From positions 1 to 64,000 of the forward strand of contig CAWDSQ010000016.1 of assembly GCA_963804955.1 (NCBI GenBank): DNA of 64,000 bases. The letters are read 5' to 3'. Made by a program: the position numbers. Numbering within the stretch: the first letter of the stretch is position 1; each line of letters opens with the position of its first letter. The stretch is from an uncultured delta proteobacterium. Lineage in GTDB: Bacteria; Desulfobacterota; WTBG01; CAIYCZ01; CAIRTM01. This document shows, in pieces, positions 21,001-27,000 of the stretch.

Positions 21001-24000
21001 TAGGTAATGCCGTTTTCAACAATGGTCTGTATGTTGGTGACCTCGGCGCCGAAATAGGAAATCGGATACTTGGATGCAAGGGCCGTGGTGGTCAGGGTCA
21101 AAAAGACCGAGGTGACCATGAGCAGCATGATGATGGTGAAGGCGATGAACATGAGAAAGCCCGCCCTGCCCATGGACTTTTCCGCGATCTCGGCCATGGA
21201 TTTGCCCCGCTCGCGCATGGAGGCAAGCAGGGCCGAGAAATCATGCACAGCTCCTATGAACAGCGTGCCGATCATGATCCACAGCCATACCGGTACATAG
21301 CCGAAAATCATGGCCACGGTAGGGCCGATGATGGGCCCGCCGCCGGCGATGGAAGCAAAATGATGGCCGAAAATGACAATCTTTTTCGTGGGCACATAGT
21401 CGACCCCGTCGTTTACTTCAACGGCAGGGGTCACATGCGAGCCATCGACATCAAAAATTTTTTCAATATAGCGGGCATAGAAGCGGTAGCCCAAAGCAAA
21501 AACAATGACAGAGATTAAGAAAATGGCAAGTACGTTCATAAACAAAATCCTTTGAAGAATAATGTCATCGGGTTTGATAGAAGGTTGCCGGGGCAGGCCT
21601 GCGGACTTATTGCCCGGCAGCCTGCCACAGACAAATGCAGCGCAGGATGGATTTCATCGTTTACGGTTTTCCTGGTTTCTTAGAATTTTTTAAAATAAAT
21701 ACAGAATTTTTATATCTTTTAATATCATAAACAATAGCACCTATCAATGTAAACTGTTGACTGCCGCAGCTCTAAGCGGTGTTTTTGTTTGACAAGGTAC
21801 GGATTGTTTAGTAGAAATCGCCCTCATCTTTGATGAGGTAAGAGACTATGAACAGACTGCATACAGCGGCTCTGCAGGGCGATGCTCCGGATGGCTTGCG
21901 CAAAGAATTTTTCAGCCATGTGCCCGACAGGCTTTGGAATGACTGGCGCTGGCAGATGCGCAGCCGGGTGCGCACGGTCGAGCAGCTTGCGCAGTATCTT
22001 CCCCTGTCGCACGAGCAGCAGGAGCAGCTCAGCTTTGTGGCAGCCAAATATCCGCTATCGATAACGCCGCACTATTTGTGCCTCATCAATCCCGATGACC
22101 CGTTTGACCCGATCCGCCGGCAGGCCGTGCCTGCCCGTGAGGAGACGGCGCTGTGCGGATTTGGCGATGAGGACCCGCTGGCGGAAGCTGAGCTGTCGCC
22201 CGTGCCGGGCCTTGTGCACCGGTATCCGGACCGGGCGCTGATCATTACCAACAATATCTGCCCGGTACAGTGCCGCCACTGCAACCGCAAGCGCCAGTGG
22301 CGGCAGGGGCCCTTTATACAGACCGACGCGGCCCTTGCGCCCATGCTGGACTATATTAAAAAAACGCCGCCGTATTCGCGATGTAATTCTCTCGGGCGGC
22401 GATCCGCTGACCTTTTCAACGGGCCGGCTCGAGCGCATCATTTCGGCTCTGCGCCGCATTAAGCATGTGGAGATTATCCGCATCGGCACGCGCTATCCCG
22501 TGACCCTGCCGCAGCGCATCACGGTTGAGCTCTGCTCCATGCTCGCCAAATACGGCCCCATCTGGGTCAACACCCATTTCAACCATCCGGCCGAGCTGAC
22601 CCCGGAGGCGGCCCAGGCATGCCAGCGCCTGCTGCGCGCAGGAATGCCGGTAAACAACCAGTGCGTGCTGCTGCGGGGCGTGAACGATACGGTGGAGGTG
22701 CAGGAGGCGCTTTGCCGGGGACTTCTGAAGATCAATGTGCGGCCCTATTATCTTTTTCATACCGATGATGTGCAGGCTACCGAGCATCTGCGCACACCGG
22801 TCGAAGCAGGCATTGCCATCATGGCGGGGCTTCGCGGCTCAGTCTCTGGCCTCGGGCTGCCCACCTATGTGGTTGATCTGCCCGGCGGCGGGGGCAAGGT
22901 GCCGCTGCAGCCCGACTACCTGATTTCAGGCTCCGACAGCGAATATGTCTTCCGCAACCATCAGGGCAAAATCTGCCGCTACCGCAACCCCGGGAGCTAA
23001 AGCATAAAAAAAGCGGGCCGCAGGGCCCGCTGATTGGAGTTACTCCCCTTTGCGCTGCCAGTGGGTCCAGTAAATGCCCTCTAAAGGATTGCCATATTTC
23101 AACCGGTCGGGGATGATTTCGATGATGCGGTAGTTGAACTCTTTCGGCAGTTCTTTCATGCCCATTTTTTTCATAACGGGAGCGAGCTTCATTTTACGGA
23201 ATGCTTCCATGAATTCTTTGGGCGTATCTTTGCGGCTGTAGACTTTTGCCGTGCCGAAAGCCTGAACGCCCTTGTAGGCGATATAATTTTCCGCCGAATT
23301 ATAGGGTGCGGCAATAGAGAACGAGACCTTCTTATTGTGCTTCAGATTTTCAAACTTCGCCCCGCCTTCGGACAGTATAAGAAAATTCATACCATGGGGG
23401 CGGTACTCGAGCGCGGTTGAACGGGGAGTATTGTCCTTGCAGGTGCTCAGGTGCAGAACATGCTGCGAGGCTATGAATTTTTTGAATTCTTTTTCAAAAG
23501 CTGCCACGGTTTTAAACTTTTTGAGTTTTATGCCCTGCTGCTTGAACAGATATGCCAGGGGCGGGGGCAGGGGTGTTTGTCTGATCTTTGCCATGATGGT
23601 CTCCTTGTATAAATGTTCCCGTTATATACCTGCTTGCCCATTAGATAATACAGAACCAGTCTGTGTTCAAGGACTATTGTTTATAGCCTGTCACAAGTCT
23701 ATTGTGACAAAAAAAGTCTACTGGGTCTGCGCGGAGACAGGGCATGTACGGGAAAGATGACAGCATATACTATAGCCCCTGATATTTCACTATTATGACG
23801 CTCTATTCTTTTTTTGATTTACTCGTACCACCATATATAGCAAAAGCGGGGCCGCTTATACCCTTGTTTTATTGCTAAAGTTTTACATGGAATTAATGGT
23901 CGCCGGCTTGCAGTATCTCCCAATCTTTGATCATTGCGAGAACCTCATCAGCGGATTGCGCGGTTTTGAGCATTTGCAAGAGATGCCGGCTGCGCGCGGC

Positions 24001-27000
24001 TTCGGCAGCAAGCCCCAGTATCTGGACATGGGCGCTTGAATCCTGCGCAGGCGTCAGGATCAAAAAAACGCATTCTATGGGCTTATCGGTTTTTACATCT
24101 GAGACACCCTGCTTTGTTATGCCGATGGCTATGACCGGCTTAGCGATACCGTCAATGCGGGCATGAGGAAATGCCACCGCTTCATTGAAAAACGTCGAGC
24201 CCTGCTTTTCGCGCTCAAGCACTGCCGTTAAGATGTCTTCACAGCCGGTATCCTTTCCCCCGCTGGATATGTGTACCAGCTTTTCTATGATTTCCTGCTT
24301 TGCCGCAGCCTGCTCCCATAGCAGGATGCGCTCCGGCGCTACGAGGCTCCCCAAAGTCGGGCCGGCCGGCGGGACCGGGGCAGGCAGGCTCTCCGCAGGC
24401 TCTTCTGCCGGCTTGGGCACAGCCGCAGCTTCCCCTTTACGGGTATCAAACACGACGATTGTGATGCCGCGCGCGGCCTCCGTCAGGCGCTGTACCATGG
24501 TTTTGCTGCCCAGCAGTTTCTGCCAGAGCGACTCATGCCGCGGGCTCCCGATAACAATATGGCCGACCCGGTACTCGCGGGCAAACCGAAGGATGGTGTC
24601 TGCTACATCCTCTCCCTTGTAGGTAAAAACCATGGCCCCGAGCTGCTTTGCCAGGGTCAGGGTGCCGGACAGCACGCGCTGCACGCTGGAGTCTATGGCC
24701 GTGGGTTCTTCCCGGGGCGTCTGGACATACACGGCATACCAGTTGCGGTTGAGTTTTCCGGCAAGGCGGGAGGCATACCGCAGGAGCATTTCGCTGTTGG
24801 GCCCGTTTGAGCTGAGGCAGACCAGGATCTGGTCAGGCGCAACGGTCGCCTCATCCTCAAGGGGCTCGCGGCGGCGGGAATCAATCTGGGAGGCAAGCTC
24901 TCGCAGGGTCAGCTCACGGAGCTGCTCGAGGTTGTTTGTGATGAAAAAATTTCCCAGGGCTGTTTCGATGCGCGACTGCGGATACACTTTGCCCTCACGC
25001 AGGCGCTGCTGCAGGTCCTCGGTGGCCAGATCGACATTGACGATCTGGTCCGCCCCGGCAAGCACGTTGTCCGGCAGGCGCTCACGCACCTTTACCTGAA
25101 TGGATTTTTCTATTGTGTCGTAGAGGCTTTCCAGATGCTGCACGTTCATGGTCGTAATGACATGAATGCCCACGGCAAGCAGGTCTTCAATGTCCTGGTA
25201 GCGCTTTGCATTGCGGCTGCCGGGCACATTGGTGTGGGCCATTTCATCGATGAGCGCGACAGCCGGCCTGCGGGCGATAATGGCATCTACATCCATCTCA
25301 TCGACCGTGATGCCGCGATAGTCCTGCCGCAGCCGCGGGATGACGTCAAGCCCCTCTATCAGCCGCGCGGTGTCGGCGCGGCCATGGGTTTCCACCAGGC
25401 CGACGGCCACATCGATGCCTTCGCTTTTAAGGCGGTGGCCCTCCAGCAGCATTTGATATGTTTTCCCCACACCGGCACAGTAGCCAAGATACACCTTGAG
25501 CTTTCCGCGCTGCGAATGGCGGATCAGCCTTAAGAAAGAGCTTGTTTTATCTTCATTCATGAAAATTCACCTGTCCTGGCTTAACGACATATTGAGCAGC
25601 AGCACATTGACCCGCGGCTCACCCAGCACCGCGAGATCGCGGCCTTCCGTATGAGCCAGTATTTTCTTCTCAACGGACTCAAAGCTCATCCCCCTTTCTT
25701 TGGCAATGCGCGGGGCCTGCAGCAGGGCATTTTGAAGGCTTATATGAGGATCAAGACCGCTTCCCGAGGCGGTTACTGCATCAGCCGGCACCAGAGCATC
25801 ACGGGCAAGGCCGTTTGCCTGCCGGTAGTCTGCAGCGCGCTGCCCGGCCGCATCGATCAGCTTTTTTGAAAGCGGCCCCAGATTGCTGCCGCCGGAGGCT
25901 GCAGCATCATACCCGGCGCCCGCTGCTGAAGGCCGGGGATGAAAATACTGCGGCCCGGTAAATCCCTGGCCGATAAGACGTGAGCCGACAACAGTTCCTG
26001 CCTCGGTGAGCAGCGACCCGCCTGACTGATACGGAAATAAGAGCTGCGCCACGCACCACACCGTCAGGGGATACATGCAGCATACAATAACGGCAAGCGC
26101 TGCTGCAGCAAGCGCTGCTGTGCGCAATTCTTTCATAAGAGCTTTCATTGCGGCCGGGCCCTTTCTATACAAGATGTAAAGCATTGACAAGCATATCGAT
26201 TACCTTTATCCCGACAAACGGCACTGCAAGGCCCCCGATCCCGTAGAGCAAAAGATTTCTGCGCAAAAGCGCTGCCGCGCTTACGGGCCGGAACCGCACG
26301 CCGCGCAAAGCAAGAGGGATCAGGGCGATGATGATAAGGGCATTGAATATGACCGCGCTGAGGATGGCGCTTGGCGCCGACTGCAGGCCCATGATGTTGA
26401 GCGGTGCAATAACGGGGAAAACGCCTATCAGCATGGCCGGGATGATGGCAAAGTATTTGGCCACATCATTGGCGATGCTGAACGTGGTGAGCGCCCCGCG
26501 GGTGATGAGCATCTGCTTGCCGATCTCTACGATCTCTAAAAGCTTGGTCGGGTTGGAGTCAAGATCAACCATATTGCCGGCCTCCTTCGCGGCCTGCGTG
26601 CCCGTATTCATGGCAACGCCCACATCGGACTGGGCCAGCGCCGGGGCATCGTTGGTGCCGTCGCCGGTCATGGCCACAAGATGGCCTGCAGCCTGCTCCC
26701 GGCGAATGAGGGCCAGCTTGTCTTCGGGTGTTGCTTCGGCAACGAAATCATCAACCCCTGCCTCGGTTGCAATGGCCGCAGCGGTTAAGCGGTTATCGCC
26801 GGTAATCATAATGGTCTTGATGCCCATGGCCCGAAACCGGACAAAGCGGTCCCTGAGGCCTCCCTTGACGATGTCTTTCAGGTGGATGACGCCCAGCACG
26901 GTCTGCGTGTCGACAACAACAAGCGGCGTGCCGCCCGCCTGCGAAATTTTCTGCTGTGCCGCCTGCACATCGACCGGAAACATTTTTCCGATAAAATCAT

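Follow-up and report, generated by a model that had tools for sequence, protein, structure and literature searches.

The window analysed, the first 64,000 nt of contig CAWDSQ010000016.1 from an uncultured delta proteobacterium, contains a kdp locus on the minus strand. Its outermost gene (32138..33493, minus strand) is predicted to encode a sigma-54-dependent response regulator resembling NtrC/AtoC (Pfam Sigma54_activat 2.3e-65, Response_reg 2e-23, and HTH_8 4.8e-8), with every NCBIfam match under its cut-off. A putative sigma-54 -24/-12 promoter on the same strand, TGGCAT-N5-TTGCC (31981..31996), lies 43 nt 5' of the start codon of a membrane histidine kinase gene (30112..31953, minus strand; Pfam 4HB_MCP, HAMP, PAS, HisKA, and HATPase_c). 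The kinase transmitter is PhoR/PnpS/WalK-like, and its best NCBIfam matches (WalK, PnpS, and PhoR) are all under cut-off. The kinase stop codon is overlapped (ATGA) by the ATG of a candidate hydrophobic ORF of 27 codons (30032..30115, minus strand), for which no significant family match was found in Pfam or NCBIfam. This is followed by a 27-codon kdpF (29946..30029, minus strand; Pfam Potass_KdpF 9.5e-6, 25.8 bits against a cut-off of 21.2), which scores 25.0 bits with TIGR02115, just under the 26.85 cut-off. As both tiny ORFs precede kdpA, the operon starts before kdpA. Next are kdpA (28197..29930, minus strand; Pfam KdpA 7.2e-238), kdpB as two ORFs (26165..28184, composed of 26165..27217 and 27171..28184, minus strand; Pfam E1-E2_ATPase and Hydrolase on the halves), and kdpC (25567..26190, minus strand; Pfam KdpC 8.1e-66). 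The operon closes, as proposed in the preliminary description, with an open frame of 555 codons (23893..25560, minus strand) that has kdpC, the split kdpB, and kdpA directly upstream on the same strand.

The two kdpB ORFs result from a frameshift, which had already been recognised and which was traced to a 1-base insertion near 27217-27219 relative to two related loci (L008 and L009). The extra base is probably an assembly error, because two near-identical metagenome contigs do not have it (run X5 at 27217 and run X4 at 27219). The translation of kdpB keeps both TGES and DKTGT; the Ser within TGES is the target of KdpD phosphorylation in E. coli (PMC11018627). Elsewhere in the assembly, genes for lysine aminomutase, trkH, ptsN, and a diadenylate cyclase are also split.

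This gene order recurs in related loci. Of the 56 loci whose flank extends to 8.1 kb or more, 52 carry a regulator homologue upstream in the same orientation, and a kinase homologue is present in all 56. Thus, the sigma-54 pair, previously noted simply as lying upstream, is indeed there, but it is more than an upstream neighbour, being part of the same conserved cassette. In eight rearranged loci the kinase homologue is directly upstream of the fusion gene; for instance, regulator, kinase, and fusion genes are contiguous in locus L041, without kdpABC in between. At 66 of 79 loci, kdpC lies no more than 300 nt upstream of the fusion gene. The strict -24/-12 pattern occurs 43 times on the plus strand of 80 loci, relative to a background of 50 occurrences in 2.67 Mb on both strands; it precedes the kinase homologue in 34 loci (at a distance of 39-47 nt in 31 of these) and kdpA in two. 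As judged from sequence and gene order, the conserved cassette is therefore composed of regulator, -24/-12 motif, kinase, tiny ORF, kdpFABC, and fusion gene.

Pfam and fold matches agree with the earlier reading of the 555-aa product as a KdpD, a Usp, and an EIIA domain. The KdpD N-terminal domain, a predicted atypical serine-kinase module, spans residues 17-226 (24883..25512, minus strand; PF02702, E 1.5e-89, 299.4 bits against a cut-off of 26.1). It is full length (model positions 1-210 of 210) and matches PDB 2r8r by sequence (E 3.3e-64) and by fold (E 1.7e-20). Walker A is the previously quoted GYCAGVGKT (residues 26-34), Walker B is D105/E106, and R186 is in the same domain. The Usp domain (residues 244-352; 24505..24831, minus strand; Pfam 3.3e-6, 28.1 bits against a cut-off of 24) has a fold match to 7ji4, the USP domain of S. 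aureus KdpD with c-di-AMP (E 7.4e-8, TM 0.80). An Ala/Pro/Glu-rich linker follows (residues ~376-406; 24343..24435, minus strand), which is predicted to be disordered (pLDDT below 50 for residues 376-398 of the AlphaFold model) and is poorly conserved, with no conserved columns in an alignment of 73 sequences. The C-terminal PtsN-like EIIA domain (residues 407-546; 23923..24342, minus strand; Pfam PTS_EIIA_2, PF00359, E 2.5e-21) scores 76.6 bits against a gathering score of 27, over model positions 3-143 of 144. It is closer to the PtsN structures 2a0j, 3urr, and 1a6j (E 3.4e-12 to 3.1e-11; fold TM 0.78-0.85) than to EIIA-Mtl (E 3.3e-6). The second motif that had been quoted, AFPHARIDG, begins at residue 463, and its His is therefore residue 466 (24163..24165, minus strand), the predicted phospho-acceptor. 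In alignments with 1a6j, 2a0j, and 3urr, FPHAR pairs with the PtsN sequence IPHGK, and His466 matches the position of His73, the phospho-acceptor of PtsN.

No Pfam match to a membrane, GAF, HisKA, or HATPase domain was found in the 555 residues, and no KdpD-domain gene other than the fusion was detected in the genome (4.26 Mb, 87% complete). Both findings accord with the preliminary description, which had reported the absence of these parts and of a KdpE beside the operon; neither a canonical KdpD with TM, GAF, HisKA, and HATPase parts nor an OmpR-type KdpE was recovered. The protein scores 343.2 bits with NF038185, the KdpD-like non-kinase potassium sensor (residues 8-342, model positions 8-343 of 373), below the cut-off of 550; on this profile comparison it resembles that family, yet the NCBI model would not assign it the name. 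Similarly, the PtsN equivalog models give 58.7 bits (TIGR01419, cut-off 138.7) and 44.6 bits (NF008145, cut-off 221), and the EIIA domain is fused and within the kdp operon, rather than free-standing in an rpoN cluster.

The fusion is not confined to this organism. Its relatives are encoded in 237 species genomes; it is carried by 17 of 251 sampled genomes of the phylum, and at least six clusters of relatives at 50% identity are full length. Three ESM Atlas clusters reported previously were retrieved again with 84, 65, and 71 members. The best 120 relatives listed, which come from many sources, all have KdpD and EIIA in the same build and in a single open frame of 544-576 aa, as do 72 of the 79 extracted locus ORFs. 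Given the several split genes of the source assembly, the fusion could be suspected of being an annotation or assembly artefact, in which loss of a stop codon, or a frameshift, had joined two genes. Its recurrence in many sources, including short-read and complete-chromosome assemblies, refutes that suspicion and makes it vanishingly improbable.

All 73 aligned sequences share Walker A (G26-x4-GKT34), D105/E106, R186, and His466 without variation; R450 is kept in 67 of them. Position 35 is predominantly aromatic (Y in 59, W in 7, F in 1, H in 1, and C in 5). The roles of Walker A/B, and of W39/R190 in binding adenine, are known for E. coli KdpD (PMC11018627); the equivalents W39/R190 and D109/E110 were matched here by motif and not by alignment to the E. 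coli sequence. In the EIIA domain, little or no variation is seen across several phyla in the His466 motif (S-T-F-x-x-E-x-x-A-x-P-H) and at Arg450, and the second active-site His (H511 here) is replaced by Gln in 63 of 73 sequences. The invariant residues indicate that both protein ends are under purifying selection, so that the serine-kinase site and the predicted phospho-acceptor site have both been kept. Close relatives without EIIA also exist (383-396 aa, 65-73% identity), which shows that some lineages can do without the domain. In the tree, short forms like that of D. vulgaris (46-51% identity) are outside the fusion clade. Overall, the identity and conservation of the KdpD-Usp-EIIA fusion are close to certain.

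The nearest described system is the kdp operon of D. vulgaris Hildenborough (DVU3334-DVU3339), for which the sigma-54 wiring was mapped by Rajeev et al. 2011 (PMC3333781). In D. vulgaris, and by prediction here, the sigma-54 regulator governs its own operon, which includes kdpFABC, and a PAS-type kinase and a separate soluble protein ("K+ sensor + UspA" in D. vulgaris) replace KdpD/KdpE; the NtrC-type regulator, non-KdpD kinase, short KdpD, kdpFABC, and putative -24/-12 promoter of such a cassette are all present here. In contrast to the fusion, DVU3336 is described in that account with sensor and UspA domains only, the D. vulgaris gene order is different, and the fully visible D. vulgaris entry in a 2024 survey table ends without an EIIA domain (PMC11018627). 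That survey (Silberberg et al. 2024) covers short KdpD/Usp serine kinases, e.g. Deinococcus geothermalis KdpD, which like the fusion have the KdpD N-terminal and Usp parts, have neither a histidine-kinase part nor KdpE, and keep the Walker A/B and Arg residues on which phosphorylation of the KdpB Ser depends; the fusion differs in its extra C-terminal PtsN-like domain with a predicted phospho-acceptor His. EIIA and PtsN have zero occurrences in the main text and seven supplementary files of the survey, in line with the earlier remark that it is silent on them, and no class with EIIA is defined there. However, it lists proteins of 551-585 aa from Desulfomonile tiedjei, Syntrophus gentianae, and a Desulfobacterium sp. 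as "KdpD domain, Usp domain", and, from the lengths and labels given, such fusions seem to have been filed as plain KdpD, Usp forms. No description of a KdpD-EIIA fusion was found in the literature searched; it is conserved but apparently undescribed.

Free PtsN acts on KdpD in E. coli, P. putida, R. leguminosarum, and S. fredii, and in rhizobia a ptsN2 gene lies inside the kdpDE cluster, which similarly ties a PtsN-type domain to Kdp control (PMC13104625, PMC9239096). In those systems PtsN is a separate protein that binds HisKA or GAF of full-length KdpD and alters transcription: the E. coli protein binds the HisKA part (PMC9239096, citing Mork-Morkenstein 2017) and S. fredii PtsN1 the GAF domain (PMC9239096). 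Here, the domain is instead covalently joined to an N-terminal/Usp half without HisKA or GAF, it scores under the PtsN equivalog cut-off, and a canonical ptsN is present elsewhere in the genome. The earlier proposal of a Rosetta-stone protein uniting both partners therefore holds in that the fusion is real, but the known contact surfaces are not united in it, as the parts that bear them are absent from the short KdpD. Regulators of the PRD type (the MtlR/LicR kind) also carry a C-terminal PF00359 EIIA domain, and phosphorylation of its His regulates the rest of the same polypeptide. Unlike in these, where it binds DNA or RNA, the module under regulation in the fusion would be a P-loop serine kinase that acts on a P-type ATPase.

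The fusion is probably a soluble regulator of the Kdp pump with three domains, namely serine kinase, Usp, and PtsN-like EIIA, the last attached through a flexible linker. The motif and the D. vulgaris precedent suggest that the membrane kinase and the sigma-54 regulator would together determine transcription, the NtrC-type protein encoded just upstream switching on the sigma-54-dependent operon. The N-terminal domain would phosphorylate the Ser of KdpB TGES and thereby brake the pump. EI and an HPr-type carrier would phosphorylate His466 from PEP, and the phosphorylation state of EIIA would set serine-kinase activity within the same polypeptide. This gating in cis is put forward tentatively, at a little short of even chances. 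The target is adjacent, with kdpC close upstream and a KdpB that has TGES; domain identity is supported by sequence and fold, the build is conserved, and both sites are under purifying selection. KdpD residues 1-230 alone phosphorylate KdpB, and short KdpD/Usp forms require outside input, for which c-di-AMP is the only one shown so far in the survey's account (PMC11018627). Relay parts are also available, as HPr and the EI N-domain are matched in each of 40 sampled carriers of the fusion and the source genome itself has EI and an HPr-like domain. The other PTS genes reported before were all located: EI, an rpoN-hpf-ptsN-rapZ cluster (separate from the kdp operon) in which ptsN is split, an HTH_17/MerR-EIIA fusion before a Proton_antipo_M gene, and a split Zn_ribbon_9-EIIA gene. 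PRD-type regulators offer a precedent for a PF00359 domain acting on its own polypeptide. Against gating in cis, canonical HPr was not found in the clade of the source organism, where the HPr-like end of a 436-aa protein was all that was seen; the position of H511 is mostly Gln, and EIIA is absent from close relatives. The AlphaFold model (pTM 0.35) leaves the domains without a fixed arrangement, and this, together with the disordered linker, means that an intramolecular contact is not predicted by the model. Additionally, where PtsN is known to act on KdpD it binds HisKA or GAF, and not the N-terminal domain (PMC9239096).

In the main alternative, an unlikely but serious one, the histidine kinase encoded in the cassette is the target of EIIA in trans, and the phosphorylation state of EIIA tunes sigma-54-dependent transcription of the operon, by analogy with free PtsN on the KdpD transmitter and on PhoR in E. 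coli; in that case the fusion would supply the soluble half of the sensor in a KdpD-like system of three parts. The HisKA region bound by E. coli PtsN (PMC9239096) has a counterpart in the PhoR/PnpS/WalK-like PAS-HisKA-HATPase kinase, which accompanies the fusion at every locus with enough flank and adjoins it in the rearranged ones, and Rajeev et al. read the short KdpD and kinase of D. vulgaris as one split sensor (PMC3333781). However, the kinase also accompanies EIIA-less short KdpDs, in D. vulgaris (PMC3333781) and at locus L096, and the link between kinase and short KdpD therefore does not need EIIA; the separate canonical ptsN in the rpoN cluster could fill the same role. Action in trans and gating in cis are not mutually exclusive. 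It is considerably less probable that EIIA is not a working phospho-acceptor but a ligand-binding, dimerisation, or stabilising module, in a protein controlled by c-di-AMP at Usp. The replacement of the second catalytic His by Gln, the low TIGR01419 score, and the fold match of Usp to a c-di-AMP-bound domain would fit such a role, as would the stimulation of a short KdpD by c-di-AMP (PMC11018627); the genome has two diadenylate cyclase loci, and c-di-AMP may therefore be the main input, which also weighs against gating in cis. Yet the near-invariance of the His466 motif and Arg450 across several phyla is hard to explain without phosphotransfer, and matches to HPr and the EI N-domain were found in 40 of 40 sampled fusion-bearing genomes.

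Because the catalytic and predicted phospho-acceptor residues are invariant, direct PTS control of the pump can reasonably be inferred, with the fusion probably letting a sugar/energy signalling relay act directly on pump control. If gating in cis is correct, the brake on the pump would follow the PEP/pyruvate state, and thus carbon and energy, and c-di-AMP at the Usp domain may act alongside this input.

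The fusion gene (23893..25560, - strand) is open over 555 codons, and its product combines a complete KdpD N-terminal domain (residues 17-226; Pfam E 1.5e-89, model positions 1-210 of 210) with a Usp domain (residues 244-352; 3.3e-6) and a nearly complete PTS_EIIA_2 domain (residues 407-546; 2.5e-21). No membrane, GAF, HisKA, or HATPase parts were found in the protein by Pfam scan. In sequence searches, the first 400 residues matched 2r8r, a crystal structure of the KdpD N-terminal region (E 3.3e-64), and the last 175 residues matched four PtsN (EIIA-Ntr) structures (E 3.4e-12 to 3.2e-11) better than mannitol EIIA (3.3e-6), with AFPHAR of the fusion protein aligned to the PtsN phospho-acceptor motif ..IPHG... 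An AlphaFold2 model of the whole protein, built with 48 relatives as input and compared by Foldseek, matched 2r8r (E 1.7e-20), PtsN chains (TM 0.78-0.85), and 7ji4, the c-di-AMP-bound USP domain of S. aureus KdpD (TM 0.80). The individual domains fold in this model (EIIA domain pLDDT ~85-95), and the Ala/Pro-rich linker at residues 376-398 is predicted to be disordered (pLDDT <50). With a pTM of 0.35 and low confidence at residues 143-240, the domain arrangement is not fixed and inter-domain contacts are not readable. A by-eye comparison of the Usp domain with the c-di-AMP motif SxS...FTAxY gave no clear match. Scores for the NCBIfam families 'KdpD-like non-kinase potassium sensor' (343 bits) and PtsN (58.7 bits) were under the respective cut-offs of 550 and 138.7; judged by sequence, the protein resembles both families and would carry the name of neither.

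The fusion is a conserved family and not an accident. The preliminary description had reported the KdpD-Usp-EIIA architecture, and this is confirmed by the Pfam and fold matches and extended by its relatives and their loci. The best 120 of 8000 scored candidates (query included) all have both PF02702 and PF00359; these relatives are 544-576 aa long, at least 62% identical, and named either 'sensor histidine kinase KdpD' or 'PTS sugar transporter subunit IIA' in the database. In a scan of one genome per species, 237 genomes encode a relative. The 80 best loci all come from metagenome-assembled genomes, labelled Thermodesulfobacteriota or 'delta proteobacterium', Hydrogenedentota, Aminicenantes, Lentisphaeria, Krumholzibacteriia, Nitrospirales, Deferrimicrobium, and FCB group. 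Among 251 genomes drawn evenly from the phylum of the window, 40 had any KdpD-like match, and in 16 of those 40, including the genome to which the window belongs (G000), a single frame covers the query to residue 545 or beyond. The fusion gene of one further genome is cut by a contig end, giving 17 carriers in 251. Within one family, labelled Desulfomonilaceae, the whole fusion frame is present in 22 of 41 sampled genomes and fragments in 2 more. A profile-free search with the EIIA domain alone gave 441 cluster representatives at E <=1e-10; a scan of the 32 best showed KdpD combined with EIIA in six representatives of full length (535-565 aa) and in three fragments. Most EIIA matches of 190-270 aa hold only the C-terminal EIIA domain and are probably 5'-truncated pieces. 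No natural split form derived from the fusion, in which a short KdpD would stand beside a separate EIIA gene, was found among the genomes examined; a candidate in G048 proved to be a fusion gene cut by the contig end.

Residues expected to be required for function are strongly conserved. From the 80 loci, 79 ORFs were extracted, 7 of which were dropped (truncated or outside 520-620 aa), and the remaining 72 were aligned with the window protein. Walker A (G26-x4-GKT34), Walker B (D105/E106), R186, and His466 of the EIIA domain are invariant in all 73 sequences, and position 35 is aromatic (Y, W, F, or H) in 68. Arg450, presumably the counterpart of PtsN Arg57, was found in 67 of 73, and a second EIIA histidine, H511 in the window protein, is Gln in 63. 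The roles of the kinase residues are taken from section 7 of PMC11018627, according to which residues 1-230 of E. coli KdpD suffice to phosphorylate KdpB Ser162, a reaction that depends on each of Walker A, W39/R190, D109, and E110.

On the same strand and 5' of the fusion gene lie kdpC, kdpB (two ORFs), kdpA, kdpF (29946..30029; 27 codons, Pfam 9.5e-6), a second tiny ORF, and a histidine-kinase gene (30112..31953) with 4HB_MCP, HAMP, PAS, HisKA, and HATPase domains. The second tiny ORF (30032..30115), located between the kinase gene and kdpF, encodes a hydrophobic product of 27 codons to which no family was matched, and its ATG overlaps the kinase stop codon (ATGA). A sigma-54 -24/-12 element of textbook form, TGGCAT-N5-TTGCC (31981..31996, - strand), lies 43 nt 5' of the kinase start codon, and is itself preceded by a response regulator gene with a sigma-54 activation domain (32138..33493, - strand). 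No terminator-like site was found 3' of the fusion gene, and no second KdpD-domain gene was found in G000 (87% complete). Farther upstream, with a GNAT gene between, trkA and a split trkH (34561..36709, - strand) lie ~1 kb from the sigma-54 regulator; therefore, two K+ uptake systems adjoin. TrkA is another PtsN target in E. coli, according to the accessible text of a 2026 PTS-Ntr review (PMC13104625).

The cassette is itself recurrent, as judged by tblastn of the window's proteins against the 80 loci. Of the 79 loci with at least 700 nt of upstream sequence, 66 have kdpC no more than 300 nt 5' of the fusion gene. All 56 loci with at least 8.1 kb upstream have a kinase homologue on the same strand, and 52 of these have the sigma-54 regulator. 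In 8 of the 13 loci without adjacent kdpC, the kinase gene is directly 5' of the fusion gene; for instance, regulator, kinase, and fusion are contiguous in locus L041. On their + strand, the 80 loci contain 43 occurrences of a strict sigma-54 pattern, of which 34 precede the kinase homologue (31 of them at 39-47 nt), two precede kdpA in rearranged loci, and seven are elsewhere, against a background of 50 occurrences per 2.67 Mb on both strands. Additionally, a second, more distant kdpABC set (38-61% identity) lies 3' of the fusion gene in L020, L065, L075, L078, G048, G090, and G161 and in some of those genomes brings its own long KdpD-like gene; therefore, the fusion can coexist with a canonical system.

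The frameshift that splits kdpB (26165..28184) is probably technical. Compared with two relatives, kdpB has a single additional base just past DKTGT; TGES is kept in the same protein. A contig from one public run (7 differences over 510 nt) has one base fewer at 27217, and a contig from another (21 differences over 479 nt) has one base fewer at 27219; the best run found in the search of public runs shares at most 39% of words. Other genes are split likewise, both in the window (lysine 2,3-aminomutase, 21848..23000; trkH, 35499..36709) and elsewhere in the assembly (ptsN, a Zn_ribbon-EIIA gene, and a diadenylate cyclase). The absence of the extra kdpB base from the public contigs suggests indel errors of assembly rather than pseudogenes and, together with these further split genes, is the basis for regarding the kdpB frameshift as probably technical.

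The N-terminal 385-400 residues of 73 fusions, 8 short forms without fusion, and 8 long forms were compared in a quick maximum-likelihood tree; the second copy of L065 was left out, its matched piece being too short. A single clade (SH-aLRT 100) unites the fusions with four close short forms that are not fused (65-73% identical), and outside it lie the D. vulgaris-like short forms and the long KdpDs. The four close short forms are nested among the fusions with modest support, and fusion monophyly was not rejected by an AU test (p 0.48). Given the single clade and this test result, the simplest reading is one gain of EIIA, possibly with one loss. Around one of the close short forms (G091) the cassette is decaying: its regulator is split, and of its kinase a remnant of 132 aa is left. 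Phyla are mixed within the fusion clade, which points to transfer of the cassette.

Sigma-54 wiring of kdp is not new, since in D. vulgaris DVU3334, a sigma-54 regulator, has as its target the operon that encodes it together with kdpFABC, and the sensor there is split into DVU3336 (K+ sensor and UspA) and DVU3335 (kinase) (Rajeev et al. 2011, PMC3333781, in the passages available). Short KdpD serine kinases are likewise known; the new part is the added PTS input domain. Silberberg et al. (2024) classified KdpD from 5495 species, and, as the preliminary description had indicated, EIIA and PtsN are absent from its text; they are absent from seven supplementary files as well (PMC11018627). In the survey table, the entries of D. 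vulgaris and S. fumaroxidans have nothing beyond the Usp domain. The label 'KdpD domain, Usp domain' is also given to proteins of Desulfomonile tiedjei (551 aa), Syntrophus gentianae (579 aa), and Desulfobacterium sp. (585 aa), whose first 400 residues closely resemble the fusion family; the UniProt accessions of the three are I4C4T7, A0A1H7VNX2, and E1YG16. From their length we infer that these three carry EIIA, for which the extra 150-185 residues would fit; this appears to be an overlooked class in the published survey of KdpD architectures. No description of a KdpD-EIIA fusion was found in the titles and abstract starts covered, with subscription journals and older PTS genomics reviews outside reach, and the words 'fused', 'fusion', and 'domain architecture' do not occur in the accessible text of the 2026 review (PMC13104625).

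Carriers of the fusion have the upstream parts of a phosphorelay. All 40 sampled carriers have HPr and EI N-domain matches, usually side by side, and 36 of them have a canonical HPr (E <=7.5e-22); the four closest relatives of G000 have only a weak HPr-like match, inside a frame of 442-471 aa. The only HPr match of G000 is a 436-aa protein encoded outside the window (contig C13, L088:499-1809, + strand). It is HPr-like over the last ~85 residues (28.6 bits to Pfam PTS-HPr, with the motif GFHLRPS), and its N-terminal ~330 residues matched no Pfam family. In the Atlas, 27 clusters consist of ~437-aa sequences named 'putative HPr family phosphocarrier protein'. The EI of G000 (586 aa) is without a GAF domain, the part of EI linked to the glutamine signal, so the signal would be PEP/pyruvate and not glutamine. 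The genome also has a canonical rpoN-hpf-ptsN-rapZ cluster and two diadenylate cyclase loci, and no HPr kinase was found in it. The further EIIA fusions mentioned in the preliminary description were located: HTH_17/MerR-EIIA (229 aa; contig C30, L002:1276-1965, + strand), directly 5' of a Proton_antipo_M gene, and a split Zn_ribbon_9-EIIA (contig C11, L005:1314-1947, - strand). As far as the EI, HPr, and EIIA matches show, the PTS of G000 looks purely regulatory, with several fused outputs. Two proteins from the EIIA search, P0172 (868 aa) and P0180 (903 aa), are Na+/H+-exchanger-family membrane proteins with two tandem related EIIA domains, a second cation-transport/EIIA fusion; they recall that E. 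coli PtsN is reported to bind YcgO, a K+/H+ antiporter (PMC13104625).

The preliminary description had read the fusion as a Rosetta stone predicting PTS control of the Kdp pump. This stands insofar as a PtsN-type domain and the KdpD sensor/serine-kinase half would work together; the known contact surfaces, however, are not joined. As described in the accessible part of PMC9239096, PtsN contacts the HisKA part of KdpD in E. coli and PtsN1 the GAF domain in S. fredii, and since both parts are absent from the fusion protein, the fusion does not bring known partners together surface to surface. Beyond domain identity, we infer how the EIIA domain may act. In regulation in cis, which is what domain fusions usually imply, the activity of the N-terminal serine kinase on KdpB would depend on whether His466 is phosphorylated; this account is tentatively favored at slightly less than an even chance.

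An alternative compatible with this, and rather unlikely, is that the EIIA domain acts in trans on the HisKA domain of the co-encoded PhoR/WalK-like kinase. Such action would follow the E. coli PtsN precedent and fits the adjacency of kinase and fusion genes that outlasts rearrangement, but as the reason for the fusion it is opposed by the same kind of kinase accompanying short KdpDs without EIIA, in D. vulgaris and at locus L096. A complex prediction for EIIA residues 400-555 with two copies of the kinase HisKA-HATPase region (375-613) scored 0.00 in a run without folded controls, a result that weighs neither for binding nor against it. A more elaborate and distinctly improbable possibility is that EIIA is a phospho-switchable tether, whereby the PTS-set state of His466 docks the soluble serine-kinase/Usp half on the DHp of the unrelated membrane kinase encoded in the cassette. 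If so, a KdpD-like tandem Ser/His kinase would be rebuilt from separate parts, placing sigma-54 kdp transcription and the post-translational KdpB brake under one PEP-dependent switch, and the result would be a natural three-component KdpD that reached at least six phyla in cassette form.

The fusion is a clean test system, because sensor and output are in one purified protein. Not until 2024 was the N-terminal domain of KdpD known to be a serine kinase and a brake on the Kdp pump, and in the available text of that work a single case of control is known for kinase-less short KdpDs, namely stimulation of a short KdpD/Usp form by c-di-AMP (PMC11018627). The fusion is common in lineages of anaerobic sediment, soil, and wastewater. 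It points to the regulatory PTS as a second input for short KdpDs, with the link written into the polypeptide. At the level of the protein, it would make K+ uptake depend on the PEP/pyruvate state, in contrast to the transcriptional coupling of E. coli.
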